Part shown: positions 38,653 through 51,008 of the stretch, in pieces | Layout: the number at the start of each line of letters is the position of its first letter | How positions within the stretch are numbered: the first letter of the stretch is position 1 | Source of the DNA: a virus | Virus record (IMG/VR): IMGVR_UViG_3300025009_000051 | Span: 1 to 64,000 of that record | DNA: 64,000 nt | Reading direction: 5' to 3' (one strand) | Translations under genes and position numbers: made by a program | Notes under the pieces: model-generated | Seen by the model: only the letters and a program-made list of their open reading frames with translations | Told to the model about the DNA's origin: nothing | The model's database searches: none

Positions 38653-40797
38653 ATGAAAGAATTCACAAGGTTAATTCAAGCACAGTTTGATAAAATGTGT
38701 GCTACAGGAAAACTGTTCAGAAGCTCATTAAGTGGGCAAGAAGTTTGGGATTTATATATTAAAGGATTTTTACCTAAGTATAATCCAATATTTAGAGACC
38801 CAGACAGTTCTACGCATAATTGCAATCTTTGCAAAAACTTTATACGAAGATATGGTAATATTGTAGCAATAGATGAAAAATATGATATTGTTACTATGTT
38901 TGATATTTATCCTCCGGAAGAATTTGAAATGGTTGTAAAAAGTTTGTCAACTGCTATTAAGAAAGCTAAAATAAGTGAAGTATTTTTTGAAACATTTGAT
39001 GAATTGAATTCTCTTCCTTATGAACGATGCACTAAAAGCAACGAAAAATTCAAATTGGGAGTAGATGTGAATTACAAACAATACACAAAAGAAGAAGCCG
39101 AAAAATTTGGTGTCACATTCATTAAGCCAGAAGAAATAAGAACATTTGATCATTTACATTTATATTTACCAAAACAATATGTAGATATGAGTGGAAAATC
39201 AATTGAATCCATTATGGCTGAATATCGAGATGCTAAAGAAGTATTTAAAAGAGCAATGGATGAAATTCCGGTAGATACTTTGAATCTTGTAGTTGATTTA
39301 ATTAATCAAGGAAGTTTGTTAAATGGTCAAACACATTTATATAAGATACAACAAATCTTACCATTGAAGAAAAATTACGATGAACTTGCAAAATCAAAAA
39401 CAGATACTTGGTGCTGGGTTAATTCATATAAACTTCCTTTCGCAAAATTTAAAAACGAATTGATAGGAGTATTATGTACTGAGTTAGCTGAAGGGAAAGA
39501 ATTAAACGACGCCTGCCAAGCATGGAATAAAAGAGTTGATCCTGCAAATTATATGAAGGCTACTGCTCCAATCACTAAAAATCAAATTGAAGAAGCAAGA
39601 AAATTTGTAGAAGAAAATGGTTATACCGAATCATTTGATAGAAGATTTGCATCTATAGATGATATTAAAGCTTCTGAAATTAAGCATATTAATGTTGGGG
39701 ATGGAAGAATGAAATCAGTTTCTATTTTTGATAATGTTAAATCAACTTCTACAAGACATAAAAGAAGTGAATTCGATGGAGTTGAAGAAGTATCGATAGA
39801 AAAATTTATGCAAGACATTTTACCTGGTTGTACTTCGGTAGAAGCGTTTTTAGCAAATAAATTTGGTGAAAATATGGTTTCACTCACTACTTCAAACAAT
39901 AAAGAAGGCAAACCCATTTTTAAATGGTCTAATAATTACAGTTGGACATTCAATGGAAATTTGGCAGGTAAAAGTATGATTAAAGAAGCTGTCCAAACCA
40001 AGGGTGGAAAAGTAGATGGAGTTTTGAGATTTTCAATAATGTGGGCAGAAGGTGAAACAAACGATAATTCAGATTTAGATGCTTGGGCGGCAGAACCAAA
40101 TGGAACAGCAATTGGATATTCGTCGGGATATAGAAAAGATCGAGGAAACACCAGAACTTCGATGTCAGGACAATTAGATGTTGATATCACAAATCCAGAT
40201 AGCTATTATCATAAAAACATTGTTGAAAATATAGCTTGGACAGATTTAAGTAAAATGAAAAATGGAAGTTATAGATTTTGGGTTAATCAATTTTCTGCAA
40301 GAAATTCTAAAGGATTTAAAGCCGAAATAGAATTTAATGGAGAAATTTATTCTTATGTTTACGACACGCCAGTTTCAGGGAATGTCAATGTTGCAGAAGT
40401 TACTTTGAATAATGGTGAATTTACAATTAAACACATTTTACCAGAAAGTGAAACTTCATCAAAAGAAATTTATGGATTACAAACAAATGAATTTCACAAA
40501 GTCAATTTAGTATGTTTAAGTCCGAATCATTGGGATGATAATAAAGTTGGAAACAAACATTATTTCTTTATGTTAGAGGGTTGTAAATGTCAGACAAGCA
40601 TTAGAAGTTTTCACAATGAAAATTTAATACCAGACTTATTATTGCACAGAAAAGTATTGGAAGTATTAGGTGCAACGAATATGATTAATCCTACAGAAAA
40701 ACAATTATCAGGATTAGGATTTAATGCTACAGTTCGAGACGAAGTCATTTTAAGATTACAAGGTACATTTAAAAGAGTAATAAAAGTAAAATTTTAA
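38653..40797 (+). CDS. Large uncharacterised phage protein with C-terminal YfaP/DUF2135-like beta-sandwich
   Basis: HNCNLCKNFI Zn-like motif; VDPANY; GVLRFSIMW...SDLDAWAAEPNG...GQLDVD...VENIAW...Y.FWVNQF. Confidence 0.65.
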   Translation: MKEFTRLIQAQFDKMCATGKLFRSSLSGQEVWDLYIKGFLPKYNPIFRDPDSSTHNCNLCKNFIRRYGNIVAIDEKYDIVTMFDIYPPEEFEMVVKSLSTAIKKAKISEVFFETFDELNSLPYERCTKSNEKFKLGVDVNYKQYTKEEAEKFGVTFIKPEEIRTFDHLHLYLPKQYVDMSGKSIESIMAEYRDAKEVFKRAMDEIPVDTLNLVVDLINQGSLLNGQTHLYKIQQILPLKKNYDELAKSKTDTWCWVNSYKLPFAKFKNELIGVLCTELAEGKELNDACQAWNKRVDPANYMKATAPITKNQIEEARKFVEENGYTESFDRRFASIDDIKASEIKHINVGDGRMKSVSIFDNVKSTSTRHKRSEFDGVEEVSIEKFMQDILPGCTSVEAFLANKFGENMVSLTTSNNKEGKPIFKWSNNYSWTFNGNLAGKSMIKEAVQTKGGKVDGVLRFSIMWAEGETNDNSDLDAWAAEPNGTAIGYSSGYRKDRGNTRTSMSGQLDVDITNPDSYYHKNIVENIAWTDLSKMKNGSYRFWVNQFSARNSKGFKAEIEFNGEIYSYVYDTPVSGNVNVAEVTLNNGEFTIKHILPESETSSKEIYGLQTNEFHKVNLVCLSPNHWDDNKVGNKHYFFMLEGCKCQTSIRSFHNENLIPDLLLHRKVLEVLGATNMINPTEKQLSGLGFNATVRDEVILRLQGTFKRVIKVKF

Positions 40798-41268: not shown

Positions 41269-41484
41269 ATGATTAAGAAATTAAATATCAATCTAAATGA
41301 TTATGAATACAAATGTGGTGATGGATGTTGCGATAATTATGGCACAATAACCACAATAGATGGAATTGAATTATCGTGCCATAATCAAGATCCAGGAACA
41401 ATAGTAAAACAAATTTTAGAGCATCTTGGATATGAAGTAAAAGTTACTCTAAGCTATAATGGAGAATTAATTGCAGAATGTTAA
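41269..41484 (+). CDS. Hypothetical protein
   Basis: YKCGDGCCDNYG motif; start reassigned to the internal Met. Confidence 0.6.
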   Translation: MIKKLNINLNDYEYKCGDGCCDNYGTITTIDGIELSCHNQDPGTIVKQILEHLGYEVKVTLSYNGELIAEC

Positions 41485-41507
41485 AATAAAAAAAAATCAT
41501 AAATAAA

Positions 41508-41867
41508 ATGGCAAAATTAAGAAGAACAAGAGATGGAGAAGGTGAAGAAGGTTCTATGACAGAAGCAATTGCTTGGAATGAAGACGGAACATTTAAAGAA
41601 ATAGTAGGTGAATCACCTGTAGTGGGTTGTTCTATGAGAGTAGGAAGTCCATTTGCAAGATCTTATTCAACCAGAGATTGGTGGATGACCACAGTAATTA
41701 CAGAAATATTGGAAACAATAAAAAATGAAGAAACTCATTATGTTAGGTTTAAAACTCAAAATTCAGAATATGAATGGTGGATTGGAAAATATCCAAAAGA
41801 AAAATTAAAAAGAAACATTTCTTTTGAAAATATAAAAGATACATCTTTTTTCAACTCAGACAAATAA
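41508..41867 (+). CDS. Hypothetical protein
   Basis: WWMTTVITEI...FKTQNSEYEW motif. Confidence 0.6.
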   Translation: MAKLRRTRDGEGEEGSMTEAIAWNEDGTFKEIVGESPVVGCSMRVGSPFARSYSTRDWWMTTVITEILETIKNEETHYVRFKTQNSEYEWWIGKYPKEKLKRNISFENIKDTSFFNSDK

Positions 41868-42035
41868 AAAATAATTAAAATAAAAAATTATGACCACCGA
41901 AATTATTAACATTGCTCTTATACTTGTTATCATTCTTAATTTAATTTCTGTATATAGAAATTATAAAATTAAACAATATGATATTGCAAGTGTAAATTTA
42001 TTTGTAGCAATTTTTTGTATTATTGCATTATTTAT

Positions 42036-42293
42036 ATGAAATATCCAAAATTGACGACTCAATTTGGAAGATGGACTTGTAATGATTGTGGTAAAGACTG
42101 TATGGAAGATAATAAGGACTATTATATGGTCAAACATGAAATATGGAATGAACACGGAGTCGGAGAAGGAATGCTGTGCATGGATTGCATGGAAAGAAGG
42201 ATGGGCCACAAACTAACCAAAGAAGATATTCTAGAATGTTTTGTAACGACCATATTTAATTCATACACTTCTAAAATATTAAGACAAAAATAA
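42036..42293 (+). CDS. Small Zn-finger protein
   Basis: CNDCG...YYMVKHEIW...LCMDCMERRMG. Confidence 0.65.
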   Translation: MKYPKLTTQFGRWTCNDCGKDCMEDNKDYYMVKHEIWNEHGVGEGMLCMDCMERRMGHKLTKEDILECFVTTIFNSYTSKILRQK

Positions 42294-42373
42294 AGAGTCA
42301 TTAAATAAAAAATATTTGAAAATTAGAAGAAAATAACTTATAATTCTATTTATTAATTAAATTTTTAAAAAAT

Positions 42374-42751
42374 ATGTCAACAGAAATTTTAACCAACAAA
42401 GGTGCATTTGTTTCATCCTTAATGAGAAACAACAGAAAGATAAAAGAAGACAGAGCGCAAGCTATTGCAGAAGACGTCGAATTAAAGTATAAACGTCAGA
42501 TCGAAGATTTGGAAATGGAAATCAAACAACAATATCGAAATTTGAATTCCATGATGGATTTATCTCCAGACGATGCTAACAGTTTAGTTCCAGCTAAGAA
42601 TTTTGATGCAAGTAAATATGTTGCAGAAGATCAAGAAATTGCATTGAAAATTCGTAATTTAGAAATTAAATTAGAATTGGCAAGATCAAGATATAAAAAA
42701 TTATTTGTAGAAGAAGCTACTGAAGAATTAATTTCAACTAAAGAAGAATAA
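42374..42751 (+). CDS. Coiled-coil protein, first gene of the vWA-AdSS operon
   Basis: LMRNNRKIKEDRA...LSP; 2-nt gap to the vWA gene. Confidence 0.7.
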   Translation: MSTEILTNKGAFVSSLMRNNRKIKEDRAQAIAEDVELKYKRQIEDLEMEIKQQYRNLNSMMDLSPDDANSLVPAKNFDASKYVAEDQEIALKIRNLEIKLELARSRYKKLFVEEATEELISTKEE

Positions 42752-42753
42752 TC

Positions 42754-43641
42754 ATGGGAGGAGGATTTTATTCGTTGGCGAGTAGAAGTACTCGAGCTAC
42801 TTCTTCTGGTTATTATACTAAATCAGCAAATGAGATATTTTCTCATTCAATGAAAGAAAGTATGAACCCAAAGAATGCCAAATTAAGAGAGTCAAGGGAT
42901 TCAACAGATAATCCAAAATCTCTTGCAATTATTGTTGCATTAGATTTAACTGGTTCCATGGGGCATATTCCGCACGATTTGGTTAAAGATGGTTTGCCCA
43001 CAATGGTAGATACAATGTTACAAAAGAAAGTGGTTTCTCCACAAATTTTATTTCTTGGGATAGGAGATCATGAATGTGATAGGGCACCATTACAAGTTGG
43101 TCAATTTGAAACAAGCGATGAATTAATGGATAAATGGCTAACTGACATTTGGATTGAATTCGGAGGAGGCGGTAATACCGGAGAAAGTTATTTATTAGCT
43201 TGGTACTTTGCTGCTTATCACACTGCAACAGATTGTTTTGAAAAAAGAGGACAAAAAGGATTTCTATTTACAATTGGAGATGAAGCAACATTAAAAACTC
43301 TTCCTACACATGCTTTAGATAATATTATGGGATTGGGACAATATCAAAACTTTACTGCAGAGGGATTATTGAAAGAAGCTCAAAAGAAGTATAATGTATT
43401 TCACATTCATGTTACAGAAACCGGAGCAGGAAGAGATGAAAGAGCCCAACAAAGTTGGAAACAATTGATAGGACAGAATGTAATTTTTGTGAATGATTTT
43501 AAAGATATACCAATTACAATTGCAGATTTAGTAGCAAAGAATAATAAAACAAATCATTCTGAAATTATTGATGGGGTATCAACTAAAGAAGAAGTTAAAA
43601 TAAATTCAGACACTGAGCAAATTGAAGAAGAAATATTGTAA
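42754..43641 (+). CDS. vWA (MIDAS) domain protein
   Basis: IIVALDLTGSMG, GGGNTGESY, FTIGDE. Confidence 0.85.
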   Translation: MGGGFYSLASRSTRATSSGYYTKSANEIFSHSMKESMNPKNAKLRESRDSTDNPKSLAIIVALDLTGSMGHIPHDLVKDGLPTMVDTMLQKKVVSPQILFLGIGDHECDRAPLQVGQFETSDELMDKWLTDIWIEFGGGGNTGESYLLAWYFAAYHTATDCFEKRGQKGFLFTIGDEATLKTLPTHALDNIMGLGQYQNFTAEGLLKEAQKKYNVFHIHVTETGAGRDERAQQSWKQLIGQNVIFVNDFKDIPITIADLVAKNNKTNHSEIIDGVSTKEEVKINSDTEQIEEEIL

Positions 43642-43654
43642 ATTTTAAAATGTT

Positions 43655-44773
43655 ATGCAAAAAGTCCAATCAGTAATTGGATTAGGTTTTGGAGACGAAG
43701 GTAAAGGTATAACTACCGATTACCTTTGCTCTAAAGCTGATAATCCATTAGTAATAAGATTTTCAGGAGGCCAACAAGCAGGGCATACTGTTTATCTAAA
43801 TGATAAGAAGCATGTGTTTTCTAATTTTGGCTCTGGTACTCTTCGTGGAGTTCCAACTTATTGGTCTAAATATTGTTCATTTGATCCTGAAGGGGCATTA
43901 AATGAATTAAAAGTTTTAAAAGAAATTGGAATAGAACCGATCTTATATATAGACTGCAAATGTCCTATCACTACACAATTCGAAAAATTCTTTAATCAAA
44001 AAAATAATTTTGCTCATGGTACCGTGGGAGTCGGAGTTGGCCCAACATTCAAAAGAGAAGAAGAGTTTTATTCTTTATTAGCAGAAGATATATTCTTTCC
44101 AGAAGTGGTTAAAATTAAATTAAAATTATTTTATAGCTATTATAATTCTACAGGATCTTTAGAGGAATATTCAAATTATTTTTTAAATTTACTTGAACAG
44201 ATAAAAAATTCATTTATAGTCACAAAGAATATGAATATGAATTTTATCAAGTATGATTTAATTGCAGAGGGTTCTCAAGGATTATTATTAGATCAGCATC
44301 ATGGATTTTTTCCTCATGTTACTCGTTCTAATACCGGAACAAAAAATTTAATTGAAATGGGATTAGAACCAGAATTATTTCTTGTCACAAGAGCGTATCA
44401 AACTCGGCACGGAAATGGTCCAATGTCAAATATAGGATTAGATTTAAATTTAATTAAAAATAAAGATGAAACAAATGTGTATAATGAATATCAAGGAGAA
44501 TTCAAAAAAACTGTTTTGGATTTGAGTCTCTTACAATATGCAACATACAAAGATGAATATATTAGAGATAATATTTTAAATGCTACTCTTGTTATCACTT
44601 GTATAGATCAATTAAATACAAGATTTCCTATAACCTTAACCTTAAAAAATGATATAAAATATTTTGATAATAAAAATGCGTTTGTTAAATTTATTAAAAA
44701 TCAATTAAATGTTAAAGAAGTATATATTTCAGAATCTCACTATGCAGACGATATTAGAAAATTTGAAGAATAA
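43655..44773 (+). CDS. Divergent adenylosuccinate synthetase-like protein
   Basis: GFGDEGKG, GGQQAGHT, EGSQGLLLD, PHVTRS and RAYQTRHGNGP present; aspartate-binding TTGRxR loop absent. Confidence 0.85.
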   Translation: MQKVQSVIGLGFGDEGKGITTDYLCSKADNPLVIRFSGGQQAGHTVYLNDKKHVFSNFGSGTLRGVPTYWSKYCSFDPEGALNELKVLKEIGIEPILYIDCKCPITTQFEKFFNQKNNFAHGTVGVGVGPTFKREEEFYSLLAEDIFFPEVVKIKLKLFYSYYNSTGSLEEYSNYFLNLLEQIKNSFIVTKNMNMNFIKYDLIAEGSQGLLLDQHHGFFPHVTRSNTGTKNLIEMGLEPELFLVTRAYQTRHGNGPMSNIGLDLNLIKNKDETNVYNEYQGEFKKTVLDLSLLQYATYKDEYIRDNILNATLVITCIDQLNTRFPITLTLKNDIKYFDNKNAFVKFIKNQLNVKEVYISESHYADDIRKFEE

Positions 44774-44978
44774 ATTATATAGATTTTTCTTTCCTTACAA
44801 AGCTTGGATTAAATTAAGAGAAGAAAGTAAAGATGAATTTGGCGATAGAATATGCTATTGTGGACATACTGATAGATGTTCATGTTTAAATCCAGATAAA
44901 ACATTATTTAAAGAATCTCTGAAAAGAGGAGATATAATTTTATGGGATAAAGAAAATGGTTGGAAACAAATGGAATAA
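44709..44978 (+). CDS. Hypothetical protein
   Basis: CYCGHTDRCSC motif. Confidence 0.5.
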   Translation: MLKKYIFQNLTMQTILENLKNKLYRFFFPYKAWIKLREESKDEFGDRICYCGHTDRCSCLNPDKTLFKESLKRGDIILWDKENGWKQME

Positions 44979-44993
44979 AAATATATTAAAAGA

Positions 44994-45025
44994 TTTGTTT
45001 GTTTCGTTTTTTTAGTTTATATTTG
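44994..45025 (+). promoter_or_regulatory. Early promoter TTTG-N20-TATATTTG
   Basis: Exact spacing; 20 nt upstream of ATG 45046. Confidence 0.75.
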
Positions 45026-45045
45026 TAGTATAAAAACAAAATAAA

Positions 45046-45467
45046 ATGAAATCAATATTTAATGGAGGTTTAGAACTTGGAATTTTTAAAATTGTTGGAG
45101 ATGAAAATTTATCTGAACAAGACTTAGAAAGAAAAAAATATTTAGAATCTCTCCCAAAAAATAAATGGGTAACTTTAGATGAAAATGGGCAAGCAATATC
45201 AGATCAAGAAGCAACTGAATTAGCCAAGAAAGAAATTAAAAAATATGCTATTATTAAAAACAAAAAATAATGGAAATACAAATTGCAAAAACTGATTATT
45301 TTAAGAAAGGAAATGAATATTCTTCTAAAGAAGACATTACAAGAATAAATTTAATTTCAACTTTATCTGGCGCGAATCTTTTCAATTATTTTGAAATAGA
45401 TTCCATAGGAACCTACATTTGCATTAAAGATTTAATTTTCAAACAACAAATTTATAATTTGAATTAA
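45046..45467 (+). CDS. Two small hypothetical proteins (45046..45270, 45270..45467)
   Basis: Coupled ORFs after the promoter. Confidence 0.55.
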
Positions 45468-45469
45468 CC

Positions 45470-46780
45470 ATGAACCAACCCTTAATTTTCAATTTTTTAA
45501 CTTCTCAAGCATGGATTAACTCTTTATATTCCTTTTCTAATAAAGTTGAAATATATCTTGTTGGAGGATATATTAGAGATATGTTAATGGGGAAAGAAGG
45601 TCATGATATAGATTTATTAATTACCAATATTTCTCATGAAGACATTCAAGAAAAAATAAAGGAATTTGGTCATTTAGTTGAAACAAATGGTCATTTCAAA
45701 ACAATAAAATTCAGACCGTTTAATTGGGATTCTAAATATGAAGACATTGACATAGTAATTCCAAGAATCGATGTTACAATGTCAGATGAAGAGTTTAAAA
45801 TTGCAAAAGAAAAAGATCCTGCCCTAAACAAACATCAAGCATTTAAGATTATTTGGGATATGAATCTCGACGCTAAACATGATTTAATTCGGAGAGATTT
45901 TACTATTAATTCAATGGCAGTAGATATTAAGACACATGAATTAATAGATCCTTTCAATGCTCAAAAAGATTTGTATAATGGCAGAATTAAAATGACTAAT
46001 GCAGATACATTTAAAGATGATCCAGTAAGAATGTTGAGAGCGTTTAGATTTGCATGTAGATATAATTTTGTAATTGAAGCAGATACACTTAATGAAATAA
46101 TCGCCAATAAAGAACTTATAGCGGGGATTTCACCTGAGAGAATATTAATGGAATTTAAGAAAAGTTTCGAACAAATTAATACTGATCCTTTATTAAAAAA
46201 ATACATTAAATTAATTCAACAAACCAAAATATTAGATGAATTAATTTCAAGAGATGAAGAATTAATATCTGACTCTTATAAATGTTATATGCTCAATAGA
46301 CCAATAACATCATTCGCTTGGTTTGTGTATTTAATTTTAGGTACTCACAATTATGTGATTTCTCCTTCAGTCAGTTACTCTGAAATATTAAAAGGAGATA
46401 AAGAAACTGAACTCGAAATTGACACAATAGATAAGATAAATAAATTTATAATTGATAAGAGTAGAGAAGATAATGATTATGTTTATAGAAAATTAGCATT
46501 TTACGTTTATAATAAATGTAAAGCTTGCACCAATTATTTTTTTAATGATAAAATAAACAATGCATTTCGAGAAATAATATCATCTAATTTTATAAAGTCT
46601 ACAAAAGATTTAGCTTTAGATGGAGAGGAAATAAAAAAATTATTAGGAATAAATGATTCTAATTTAAAAATGAGAGCTAAAGAAATTGGTGAAATGCAAA
46701 GAAAATTAATAGATTTGATTTTACAAAACATCGCAAAAAATACAAAAGAAAGTTTAACCTATTTTATTAAAACATTATGA
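45470..46780 (+). CDS. cca: tRNA nucleotidyltransferase (CCA-adding)/poly(A) polymerase family
   Basis: YLVGGYIRD, DIDL, DLIRRDFTINSMA and DDPVRMLRAFRF motifs. Confidence 0.88.
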   Translation: MNQPLIFNFLTSQAWINSLYSFSNKVEIYLVGGYIRDMLMGKEGHDIDLLITNISHEDIQEKIKEFGHLVETNGHFKTIKFRPFNWDSKYEDIDIVIPRIDVTMSDEEFKIAKEKDPALNKHQAFKIIWDMNLDAKHDLIRRDFTINSMAVDIKTHELIDPFNAQKDLYNGRIKMTNADTFKDDPVRMLRAFRFACRYNFVIEADTLNEIIANKELIAGISPERILMEFKKSFEQINTDPLLKKYIKLIQQTKILDELISRDEELISDSYKCYMLNRPITSFAWFVYLILGTHNYVISPSVSYSEILKGDKETELEIDTIDKINKFIIDKSREDNDYVYRKLAFYVYNKCKACTNYFFNDKINNAFREIISSNFIKSTKDLALDGEEIKKLLGINDSNLKMRAKEIGEMQRKLIDLILQNIAKNTKESLTYFIKTL

Positions 46781-48450: not shown

Positions 48451-49276
48451 ATGACAATGAAATATAGAATTAAACAAAAGACATTCCTAAATTCAGATGA
48501 AAAGATTATATCTAATATTTTTTATATTCAGAAAAAAATGTTATTTTTGTGGGTAAGAGTAAGTACCAGAGTAATACCGAATGACAATAAAGTGCATACA
48601 ACATTTAAAAAAAGTTATTTAACATTTAATTCTTATGAAAACTGTGAATCCCATTATAAAGAATTTTTTGAATGTGAAAATGTGATTACATTTAGAAACA
48701 AAAAAATATTTAAGGTATATGATATATATTTTGATTGTAGTAGATATTTTGTAATGTTTGGTGGAATTTGGGTTACATTTTCTACACCTCAAGAAGCGAA
48801 TAGAGCAATCAAAAAAGATAATGATAAAAAAGTTAAATCGACCAAAATAACCATACTCAATTTATAACAATAAAATGAAATATAGAATCAAACAAAAAAT
48901 ATCCCTGGATTCAACTGAAAAGATAATATCTAACATTTTTTATATTCAGAAAAAAATATTATTTTTGTGGGCACGAGCCAAGAGTAGAACTGGTATTTCA
49001 AACTATAATGTCTTGACATTTTCTAACTTTGAAGATTGTAAAGAACATTATGATGAAATGTTTACTTGCAAAAATGAAATATCATATAAAAATAAAAAAA
49101 TATTTACAATTTATAATGAATTTAAGATATTTGATTGGAAGTCACATTGCAATTTTGCTGTGTGTTTTTCTAATTGCTGGTTTTATTACGGTAGCATTGA
49201 AAAAGCCAAACAAGCAATAGACAAAAATTTAGATGAACAAGTTAAATCGACTAAAATAAAAATAATCGATGTATAG
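48451..49276 (+). CDS. Tandem paralogous pair (48451..48867, 48875..49276)
   Basis: Both read MKYRIKQK...EKIISNIFYIQKK.LFLW...VKSTKI. Confidence 0.75.
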
Positions 49277-51008
49277 TGATAAATGGTTTCCTCAAAATTT
49301 TTTATTTGATAATAATAATCCTTTTCATTTATATATTTTAAAACAGAATATTTCTAATATCATAAAAATTATTTTTGGTAAAGAATATTCTGTCGATTAT
49401 TATTCTGTAGATGATATTATGAATAAAAACAATAATATTATTTATATAGATCATAATATTAAAAATATAGATAATCAAATTGGTTATGTATTATTATCTG
49501 CATTTCGTAAAAAATGTGATTTTAATATTCATCAAATTATTTCTAATAGTGGTATATCTGATATAGAATATGAAAAATTAGAATTGATATGTCATGTGTT
49601 GAGTTTTCACAATGCGTTAGCTGAAATTAAAAAAGTAGTCCCCGGTTATCTAAAATTTATTAAAAAATATTTAGATTATAATTTCAAAATTTTAAGTCAA
49701 TATACTTCAGAAACAATATCAACAAATAAAATTTTATTACATCAACTATTTAAAAAAGTATTAACAGAAAATAATTGGGATACTTTTTCTTATCATTTAT
49801 TAAAATTTCATTTAGAAGAATCTTCTATATCAGAAATCAAAAATATCCAAGATAAGTTAAAAAAAGAAAAACAATTAGATGAAGAATTATTTTTTAAATA
49901 TTTTACTGAACTTTATACTGTTTTACAATCTATAAACACCAATAAAGAAAATGATTATTCAACTTTAGAAGAAGCAGAAATAAAAAAACTAACTAACACA
50001 ATTGAAAGATATGAATCAATAATTTTCAATAAATTAAAATTAGCTTCTATCAGATATTCATTAAAAAGTAATATTATAAAGTATGATACATTAAAAATAA
50101 AACAAGAGAAAGTCAATTATAAATTAAATGAACCAGTAAATATTTTATATTTAGATGAATTAAATTCAGCTTCTTTAGATAATAAATTATTTGATTTATT
50201 TGAAACAAATCCAACATTATTAAATTACAATCAAAAAATAATCTTACCTGATGGAATTAAAATAGGTAGAAAAATTTTATCTCAGTTGAAATATCGAGAC
50301 AATAATAAGATAGAAAAAAATAATTATTTATTATCAGGAAAACTGAATAAAAGATTTCTATATAAAATACCATTGGAAGATAAAAACATTTATTATCGTG
50401 AAATAGATCAAACAAAGAAACATAGAACCGTTTATATTGTTGTAGATGCATCTAAATCAATGCAGGATGATAAATGGGATAAGACTCAAAAATTTGTAAT
50501 CAGTCTTATTTATGCAATATCAAATATTAGATCATTAGATATTGAAGTGTATTATAGACGAACATTACAGAATCAAAATAAATCTGTAAAAAATTTAGAT
50601 ATTAATCCTTTTGTTTTAAAAGCATATGATAGTAAGAAAGATAAATTTGAAAAGGTTAAAAAATATTTTAAATATCTAAAACCAAGTGGAGGATCTCCTG
50701 AAGGAATTGTATTGGATTATTTATCAAATAAATTAAAACAAGATTCGATAGTAATTAATATCTCAGATGGGTTACCTGAATTTTATAATCATTCAATTTC
50801 ATATACTGGTACTGAAGCAAATGATCATACTAAAAAACAAATAAAAAAATTAATGGATAAGAATATAAATTTCATATCATATTTTATAGGAGATAGAAAT
50901 GATTATGAAAAATATAAAACTATATATAAGCATAAGCATTTCTATGTTCCTGAAGAAATTGATAAATTAGGATTGACCCTAAATGAAGTTTTATTCGACG
51001 AGGTATAA
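49269..51008 (+). CDS. CobT-like protein with C-terminal vWA domain
   Basis: SGKLNKRFLY, VVDASKSM, GGSPEG and NISDGLP motifs. Confidence 0.7.
   Translation: MYSDKWFPQNFLFDNNNPFHLYILKQNISNIIKIIFGKEYSVDYYSVDDIMNKNNNIIYIDHNIKNIDNQIGYVLLSAFRKKCDFNIHQIISNSGISDIEYEKLELICHVLSFHNALAEIKKVVPGYLKFIKKYLDYNFKILSQYTSETISTNKILLHQLFKKVLTENNWDTFSYHLLKFHLEESSISEIKNIQDKLKKEKQLDEELFFKYFTELYTVLQSINTNKENDYSTLEEAEIKKLTNTIERYESIIFNKLKLASIRYSLKSNIIKYDTLKIKQEKVNYKLNEPVNILYLDELNSASLDNKLFDLFETNPTLLNYNQKIILPDGIKIGRKILSQLKYRDNNKIEKNNYLLSGKLNKRFLYKIPLEDKNIYYREIDQTKKHRTVYIVVDASKSMQDDKWDKTQKFVISLIYAISNIRSLDIEVYYRRTLQNQNKSVKNLDINPFVLKAYDSKKDKFEKVKKYFKYLKPSGGSPEGIVLDYLSNKLKQDSIVINISDGLPEFYNHSISYTGTEANDHTKKQIKKLMDKNINFISYFIGDRNDYEKYKTIYKHKHFYVPEEIDKLGLTLNEVLFDEV

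Follow-up and report, generated by a model that had tools for sequence, protein, structure and literature searches.

A vWA-partnered branch of the adenylosuccinate synthetase family in phages and bacteria that is neither PurA nor PurZ

Positions 1 to 64,000 of IMG/VR record IMGVR_UViG_3300025009_000051, referred to as the window herein, form the start of a 183.7-kb viral record with a GC content of ∼26%. They encode an enzyme of the adenylosuccinate synthetase (AdSS) fold, preceded on the same strand by the genes for a small helical-hairpin protein and for a von Willebrand factor A (vWA) protein with a metal-ion-dependent adhesion site (MIDAS). We found that this enzyme is neither PurA nor PurZ and does not serve housekeeping AMP synthesis; the best explanation is that it belongs to a third, uncharacterised branch of the AdSS family. 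The three open reading frames (ORFs) of the module are as follows.

42374–42751, + strand: helical-hairpin (coiled-coil) protein gene, ORF of 125 aa
42754–43641, + strand: vWA/MIDAS protein gene, ORF of 295 aa
43655–44773, + strand: gene for the AdSS-fold enzyme of the vWA-linked clade, ORF of 372 aa

The enzyme matches the Pfam family PF00709 with an E-value of 7.9e-42, and its scores against the NCBIfam models of the two characterised groups fall well below their cut-offs. For the PurA equivalogs (NF002223, TIGR00184, and others) we obtained 118.9 versus a cut-off of 402, 103.6 versus 395.55, and 108.6 versus 445, and for the PurZ model NF038379 the enzyme reached 38.6 bits versus a cut-off of 300. 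In five out of five cassette-bearing bacterial genomes, a canonical full-length PurA (553–601 bits) is encoded beside the paralogue (129–158 bits). A maximum-likelihood tree placed all vWA-linked enzymes in one clade with support of 100/98, separate from E. coli PurA, from the housekeeping copies in the carrier genomes, and from PurZ, whose branch in this tree is very long, so that only the monophyly of the vWA-linked clade is to be read from it. A preliminary description of this DNA, made from its letters alone, had called the enzyme neither PurA nor PurZ; the sub-threshold scores, the separate clade, and the coexistence with a normal purA bear this out.

To this we added structural and residue-level comparisons. 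An AlphaFold2 (AF2) model of the enzyme with a mean predicted local distance difference test (pLDDT) score of 85 matched solved PurA structures in Foldseek with template modeling (TM) scores of 0.76–0.84, and matched archaeal PurA, PurZ, and PurZ0 more weakly (TM 0.55–0.65). After the AdSS structures, the next fold matches were the SIMIBI GTPases FtsY and Ffh. We aligned the enzyme with E. coli PurA and phiVC8 PurZ using MAFFT and surveyed conservation over 148 distinct family members. The roles of the PurA residues were taken from the H. pylori AdSS complexes, in which inosine monophosphate (IMP) is contacted by Asp12, Asn37, Thr121, Thr230, Val264, and Arg294 together with Arg135 of the neighbouring subunit (PMC11571797). 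The GDEGKG motif was located at residues 13–18, GHT at 43–45, and EGSQG at 205–209. Within these motifs, D14, K17, H44, and Q208 correspond to D13, K16, H41, and Q224 of the E. coli enzyme and are at least 95% conserved or invariant across the family. Asp occupies the position of PurA D13 in 147 of the 148 members, and the same column in phiVC8 PurZ holds Ser. The preliminary description had thus correctly read all three motifs as retained, and its assignment of a catalytic Asp rather than the Ser of PurZ agrees with both the phiVC8 row and the literature.

The loop that binds aspartate in PurA is replaced. Residues 272–285 of the enzyme read ETNVYNEYQGEFKK, and in a sequence-level alignment of ∼25% identity to E. 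coli PurA, Y279, Q280, G281, E282, F283, and K284 fall opposite T300, T301, G302, R303, R304, and R305, respectively. The substitution of T300, T301, and R303 by Y279, Q280, and E282, which the preliminary description had also pointed out, is therefore present in the alignment. Throughout the family the loop takes the form [WYF]-Q-G-x-[FQL]-[RK], with Q280 and G281 invariant and the R303 position variable (E, K, H, N, or A). The ligands of the IMP 5′-phosphate are altered as well: N38 has become Q in 147 of 148 members, T129 has become C or V, and T239 alone is kept, while the position of R143, which acts in trans in PurA, is unconserved (P, H, F, Y, or G). Among other IMP contacts, S240 is replaced by R in 89% of members and V273 by H in 100%. 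The family shares a signature of its own, which consists of H252, E272, N274, Q280, G281, R/K284, and T315-C316-x-D318. This last element, TCID at 315–318 in the window's enzyme, is invariant at T315, C316, and D318, and its PurA counterpart is TKLD. Given its position and this invariance, TCxD is likely the equivalent of the guanine-reading TKLD; MAFFT left TCID and TKLD unaligned, so that of the change from TKLD to TCID reported earlier, the presence of TCID stands and the correspondence is only likely. As judged from these alignments, the apparatus that activates a 6-oxopurine is preserved, and the recognition of aspartate, of the ribose 2′-OH, and of part of the 5′-phosphate is predicted to have been rebuilt.

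The second line of evidence concerns the partner gene. Our searches yielded >4400 enzyme homologues at E ≤ 1e-10, and we assembled a phage sample of 80 IMG/VR loci plus Vibrio phage Va1, Rhizobium phage RHph_Y65, and mycobacteriophage MoMoMixon, and a bacterial sample of 80 genome contigs drawn with two peptide patterns only. The viral loci came from an alignment-based scan of viral contigs, a single-sequence scan having given nothing. In 161 out of 161 loci having upstream DNA, a vWA gene lies directly 5′ of the enzyme gene on the same strand; for the bacterial loci the count is 78 of 80, and both exceptions begin at a contig edge. This vWA-then-enzyme arrangement is far beyond chance. Among phage records, 238 carry an enzyme homologue and 219 carry the vWA protein, in a near-identical organism breakdown; phages of Listeria, Staphylococcus, Salmonella, and Acinetobacter are among the enzyme matches and not among the vWA matches. 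Within ±8 kb, only the three genes of the triad are conserved from this window, and when 2654 neighbour genes were clustered, the four widespread families were the enzyme, the vWA protein, the coiled-coil protein, and a protein of ∼294 aa. Lastly, we found a natural vWA-enzyme fusion (P0245; metagenomic, 652 aa, four member sequences) in which residues 1–261 are a vWA protein 42% identical to that of the window and residues 305–631 are an enzyme 36% identical to it. Taken together, the universal adjacency and the natural fusion support a physical vWA-enzyme partnership.

Apart from this fusion, the long forms that we encountered were two intein-bearing enzymes, and no further informative fusion was found. 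The inteins are of the LAGLIDADG type and occur in two enzyme clusters (P0243 and P0244) with a total length of ∼800 aa. A similarly long AdSS-like ORF (L049:6588-8996) matches the enzyme downstream of its insert from residue 37 onward only, which puts the insert among the first ∼40 residues. Outside genes for replication and repair, inteins are uncommon. Eight phage loci, including L023 and L024, carry a GIY-YIG/NUMOD homing endonuclease gene in the interval between the vWA and enzyme genes, and at several loci this interval measures 750–860 nt. The module is carried by cultured Vibrio, Rhizobium, and Mycobacterium phages, by jumbo phages, and by bacteria of several phyla. The bacterial carriers (L087–L166) include Electrothrix, Electronema, Crenothrix and other Methylococcales, Desulfamplus magnetovallimortis, Saprospiraceae such as Haliscomenobacter, and members of the candidate phyla radiation. 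Many of them are filamentous or multicellular, as in the cable bacteria Electrothrix and Electronema, a skew that may be an artefact of sampling with two peptide patterns.

The vWA protein itself is well conserved in its metal site and in its N-terminus. Its AF2 model (pLDDT 69) matched integrin I domains, BatB, and NorD in Foldseek with a probability of 1.0 and target TM scores of 0.5–0.6, and the MIDAS motif D64-x-T66-G67-S68 confirms the vWA assignment with a MIDAS that had been made from the sequence. No Pfam model was significant on the 295-aa protein, none of its >7600 homologues carries a Pfam domain, and its PHROG family, phrog_2971, is of unknown function. Across 144 vWA sequences, the MIDAS residues, G175-D176-E177, M1, G2, and R45-E46-x-x-D49-S50-x-x-H53-P54 are at least 95% conserved. 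The R-E-x-x-D-S-x-x-H-P motif sits in an N-terminal extension of ∼55 residues that begins with Met-Gly; the residues following M1-G2 differ by subclade (MGxGxYS versus MGYSxWS). At the C-terminus, a variable flexible linker is followed by a hydrophobic motif and a near-invariant terminal Leu. A second vWA-domain protein is encoded 4.5 kb downstream of the module (49269–51008, + strand; 579 aa, vWA at residues 388–565). The layout of this 579-aa protein, with its C-terminal vWA domain, recalls Ro60/TROVE proteins, and we found no TROVE match in the phage record.

The third component is interchangeable. The 125-aa product of the first gene matched no Pfam, PHROG, or NCBIfam family; clustering at 50% gave 451 representatives of its own family, most of them stand-alone and 110–150 aa long, and its structural neighbours in the Atlas are helical hairpins. 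The coiled-coil protein of the preliminary description is thus supported as a helical hairpin and as nothing beyond that. Of the 83 phage loci, 48 have a coiled-coil gene directly 5′ of the vWA gene, as do 28 of the 80 bacterial ones (∼47% overall), and its stop codon often overlaps the vWA gene start; N-terminally extended versions of the protein contained no informative domain. In ∼55 loci (∼34%), a J-domain/kinase-like protein of ∼294 aa takes its place. This protein has an invariant HPD tripeptide, a DnaJ match just under the Pfam cut-off, and homology to mycobacteriophage gp256, which bears a protein-kinase domain. No J-domain gene was found in the record studied here. The phage loci of the J-domain type have a small acidic Met-Gly protein between the J-domain and vWA genes. 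In the subgroup L046–L084, this protein is 41–74 aa long with an N-terminus of the form MG-x-N...SFEEM and a Thr/Glu-rich tail, and in J-domain-type phage loci it is always encoded directly 5′ of the vWA gene. Conservation of a triad, as had been proposed, therefore applies to the vWA and enzyme genes, which stay together in all 161 informative loci, and not to the first gene, which is exchanged for the J-domain/kinase-like protein in about one-third of loci.

Given a replaced aspartate loop alongside phosphotransfer residues that are invariant across the 148 members, activation of a 6-oxopurine followed by attack of a different nucleophile is the most economical reading. We give a probability of roughly 55% to the proposal that the enzyme is GTP-dependent, activates a 6-oxopurine nucleotide in complex with the vWA protein, and employs a nucleophile other than free aspartate. 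In such a reaction, GTP would be used to activate C6 of a hypoxanthine-type nucleotide, which the enzyme would then transfer to a nucleophile other than free L-aspartate. Catalysis would take place in a hetero-complex with the vWA protein, whose N-terminal extension and metal site might contribute the missing part of the active site, bind the acceptor, or be the acceptor. The first-gene product would act as an adaptor tying the pair to other machinery, which for the J-domain type would be host DnaK. Several considerations weigh against this proposal. We infer the substrate, the nucleoside triphosphate (NTP), and the nucleophile from sequence, and the alignment of the aspartate loop has an identity of just ∼25%. 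R/K284, opposite R305, is kept, which may point to a carboxylate-bearing substrate and even to aspartate, and the missing arginines may be supplied in trans by the vWA protein. The changed ligands of the IMP phosphate may also mean that the substrate is something other than a mononucleotide. Of the mechanism advanced in the preliminary description, the NTP-dependent activation of a 6-oxopurine for a different acceptor survives as this most economical reading; its suggestions that the vWA protein presents the amine and that the product serves counter-defence found no support.

Four explanations compete with it. One is protein purinylation: the α-amine of the vWA protein's invariant N-terminal Gly would receive an activated purine nucleotide through C6, giving a covalent protein-nucleotide adduct, and in loci of the J-domain type the small acidic Met-Gly protein would be modified as well. 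Conservation of M1 and G2 in at least 95% of the vWA sequences would fit such an acceptor, as would the Met-Gly at or near the start of all 17 small acidic 'MG...SFEEM' proteins in J-domain-type phage loci and the vWA N-terminus that stays free in the P0245 fusion. Loss of the carboxylate-binding arginines also suits an acceptor without free carboxylates. This evidence is circumstantial, as a conserved N-terminal Gly could be structural or metal-binding, and the coiled-coil partner in the window does not start with Met-Gly; we regard purinylation as unlikely. It is also quite unlikely, in our estimation, that the enzyme is a divergent but genuine adenylosuccinate synthetase that joins IMP (or dIMP) to aspartate and receives its arginines in trans from the vWA protein instead of a second subunit. 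PurA already takes one phosphate-binding Arg from its neighbouring subunit (PMC11571797), the vWA extension offers the near-invariant R45, and all catalytic residues and R/K284 are conserved. Yet T300, T301, and R303 are all replaced, with the R303 position variable, the scores lie three- to four-fold under the equivalog cut-offs, the carrier genomes already have a normal purA, and there is no purB in the phage record.

Two further alternatives were considered. An ammonia-dependent re-aminase would return (d)IMP or (d)ITP to the adenine nucleotide, either reversing deamination of the RADAR or Kongming type or repairing spontaneous damage. A small nucleophile needs no aspartate loop, and the changed 5′-phosphate and 2′-OH ligands (N38Q, T129C/V, loss of R143 and R303) would accommodate a substrate that is deoxy or a polyphosphate; dITP is already known as an immune messenger, and phages counter it at the precursor level (Kongming preprint). 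Such an activity, however, leaves the obligate vWA partner and the adaptor without a role. Many bacteria carry the cassette on their chromosomes, we saw no link between it and deaminase systems, and the phage countermeasure in the Kongming preprint is a different one, Dmp. We consider a re-aminase very unlikely. We give similarly little credence to a switch or chaperone pair, in which the PurA-like protein would be the GTP-driven partner of a vWA co-chaperone, as in MoxR-vWA pairs, without ligase chemistry. It would be in line with the habit of vWA proteins of working with an NTPase such as MoxR or a GTPase (PMC7159879), with FtsY and Ffh as the next fold matches after AdSS, and with the J-domain partner in about one-third of loci, which hints at chaperone biology. 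What such a switch does not readily explain is the invariance of H44, Q208, and D14 (the base acting on N1 of IMP), which act on the purine and not in GTP hydrolysis alone, or that of several family-specific residues in the former aspartate loop.

We next consider the locus as a whole. The three ORFs are co-directional, with gaps of 2 nt between the first gene and the vWA gene and 13 nt between the vWA and enzyme genes, and the coordinates given for this tightly packed arrangement in the preliminary description were exact. The 80-nt gap 5′ of the first gene holds a promoter-like site, which agrees with the consensus at 11 of 12 positions and is the best sigma-70-like match in 41400–45600:

42316–42344, + strand: promoter-like site TTGAAA / 17-nt spacer / TATAAT (pattern match only)

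No terminator-like site was found on the + strand inside the triad. The best explanation is that the three genes form one operon encoding a protein complex. No AGGAGG-type Shine-Dalgarno sequence was present at the two gene junctions inspected. Upstream of the module, the window encodes a 714-aa protein (38653–40797, + strand) of phrog_1735, a family of unknown function found in 534 phage records, including phages of Salmonella, Klebsiella, Bacillus, Caulobacter, Vibrio, and Cellulophaga. Its identity is 71% to a protein of an uncultured 462-kb phage and 54% to one of Cellulophaga phage phi17:2, and it gave no Pfam, NCBIfam, or PADLOC match. The Cellulophaga-phage counterpart of this gene and the lack of an AGGAGG-type Shine-Dalgarno sequence at the two junctions suggest a Bacteroidota host. 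A Campylobacter-type deoxyinosine phage, an idea that came from the GC content of 26%, was ruled out, as the nearest relatives of the neighbouring gene are in Cellulophaga phages; megablast returned no close record. CheckV estimated the 183.7-kb record to be 79% complete. The identical vWA protein sequence occurs on six contigs, the largest of which is 292,100 bp, and because of this contig the real genome may be larger than the record and that of a jumbo phage.

Gene neighbourhoods point to no particular biological role. The three triad proteins and the J-domain partner had no significant match in PADLOC-DB 2.0. The bacterial flanks vary by locus, and the three that we scanned include housekeeping genes such as dnaA, RNase H, and rlmN; the cassette is thus self-contained, with no obvious placement in a prophage or defence island. 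No flanking gene is conserved across the set, and the counter-defence role proposed earlier is left unsupported. A link to NrtR or ADP-ribose did not show up in the conserved neighbour clusters or in the scanned flanks, although no search dedicated to NrtR or Nudix genes was made. An anti-Kongming role through consumption of dIMP was also considered and set aside: the Kongming preprint, which describes dITP as an immune messenger that phages counter at the precursor level, names Dmp as the countermeasure and does not mention adenylosuccinate synthetase. In one phage group, an R2K ATP-grasp gene lies directly 3′ of the module in 17 loci, with HAD_SAK, ligases, and TROVE nearby. We rejected these RNA-repair-type neighbours as a functional clue, as only 10–18 phage loci and hardly any bacterial ones have them. 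NAMPT was found within the flanks of three loci, and directly 5′ of the vWA gene in one locus; the NAMPT-type nicotinamide phosphoribosyltransferase of the present phage (501-aa frame; 133681–134568, − strand) is encoded 90 kb from the module. A CCA-adding tRNA nucleotidyltransferase, with a PolyA_pol head and an RNA-binding domain, is encoded 0.7 kb downstream of the module (45470–46780, + strand), and no tRNA genes were found in the 64-kb window.

To date, AdSS chemistry has two known outcomes, AMP synthesis by PurA and 2-aminoadenine DNA by PurZ. Of the 481 phage proteins with PF00709 collected in a 2026 survey, 147 were grouped with PurZ and hardly any with PurA, and the others were not discussed; the survey's tree places ∼330 outside both groups (PMC12884076). 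The vWA-linked clade is as large as PurA or PurZ among phage proteins, and the pipeline labels 'adenylosuccinate synthase' and '2-aminooxy adenylosuccinate synthetase' attached to it are probably wrong. Our literature search found no paper linking adenylosuccinate synthetase with vWA in microbes and no published description of the module. The rebuilt acceptor pocket and the obligate metal-binding partner point to a new purine-C6 product, which could be a modified nucleotide, a signal, or a protein adduct. Purinylation, if true, would be a new type of covalent protein-nucleotide conjugate in large phages and bacteria. Since cultured phages carry the module, the question is open to direct testing.

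Among known systems, PurA (EC 6.3.4.4; E. coli 1ADE/1CG0, H. pylori 6ZXQ) is the closest in structure. The enzyme shares with it the fold (TM ∼0.8), the P-loop GDEGKG, GHT with the catalytic His, EGxQG with the catalytic Gln, and the conserved Asp of the guanine-reading motif. It differs in being ∼60 residues shorter, in being always paired with a vWA protein, in coexisting with a normal purA, and in having [WYF]-Q-G-x-[FQL]-R for the TTGRRR and TCxD for the TKLD of PurA. PurZ and PurZ0 (NF038379; 6FM1, 7ODX, 7VF6), the N6-succino-2-amino-2′-deoxyadenylate synthase of Z-genome phages, resemble the enzyme in being phage-borne, shortened members of the AdSS superfamily, and both fall in phrog_1211. 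In contrast to the enzyme, PurZ has Ser (or Gly, according to the literature) at the Asp13 position, and PurZ still uses aspartate. DatZ, MazZ, and DpoZ were not among the gene clusters conserved around the module, although no dedicated search for them was made.

The pairing with vWA has parallels of its own. TerY-type triads, reportedly described by Anantharaman, Iyer and Aravind in 2012, are said to combine a vWA protein with a Ser/Thr kinase and a PP2C phosphatase. Taking that definition, the J-domain type of the module is similar in that a kinase-like protein is encoded directly 5′ of the vWA protein, as in mycobacteriophage gp256-gp257. The module differs in having no PP2C phosphatase, in the J domain of its kinase-like protein, and in the coiled-coil protein that the window has instead; an AdSS-like enzyme is no part of those triads. 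The pairing of a P-loop NTPase-fold protein with a MIDAS vWA protein is likewise obligate in the MoxR-vWA and GTPase-vWA pairs (Kaur, Burroughs, Iyer and Aravind 2020, PMC7159879), whose third components also vary and which occur in both phages and bacteria. An AAA+ MoxR gene beside the vWA gene was not among the conserved neighbours in our 163 loci. Unlike those pairs, the module described here has a vWA protein without fused effector domains, and its partner, which has the AdSS fold and intact residues for purine activation, is neither an AAA+ protein nor a TRAFAC GTPase.

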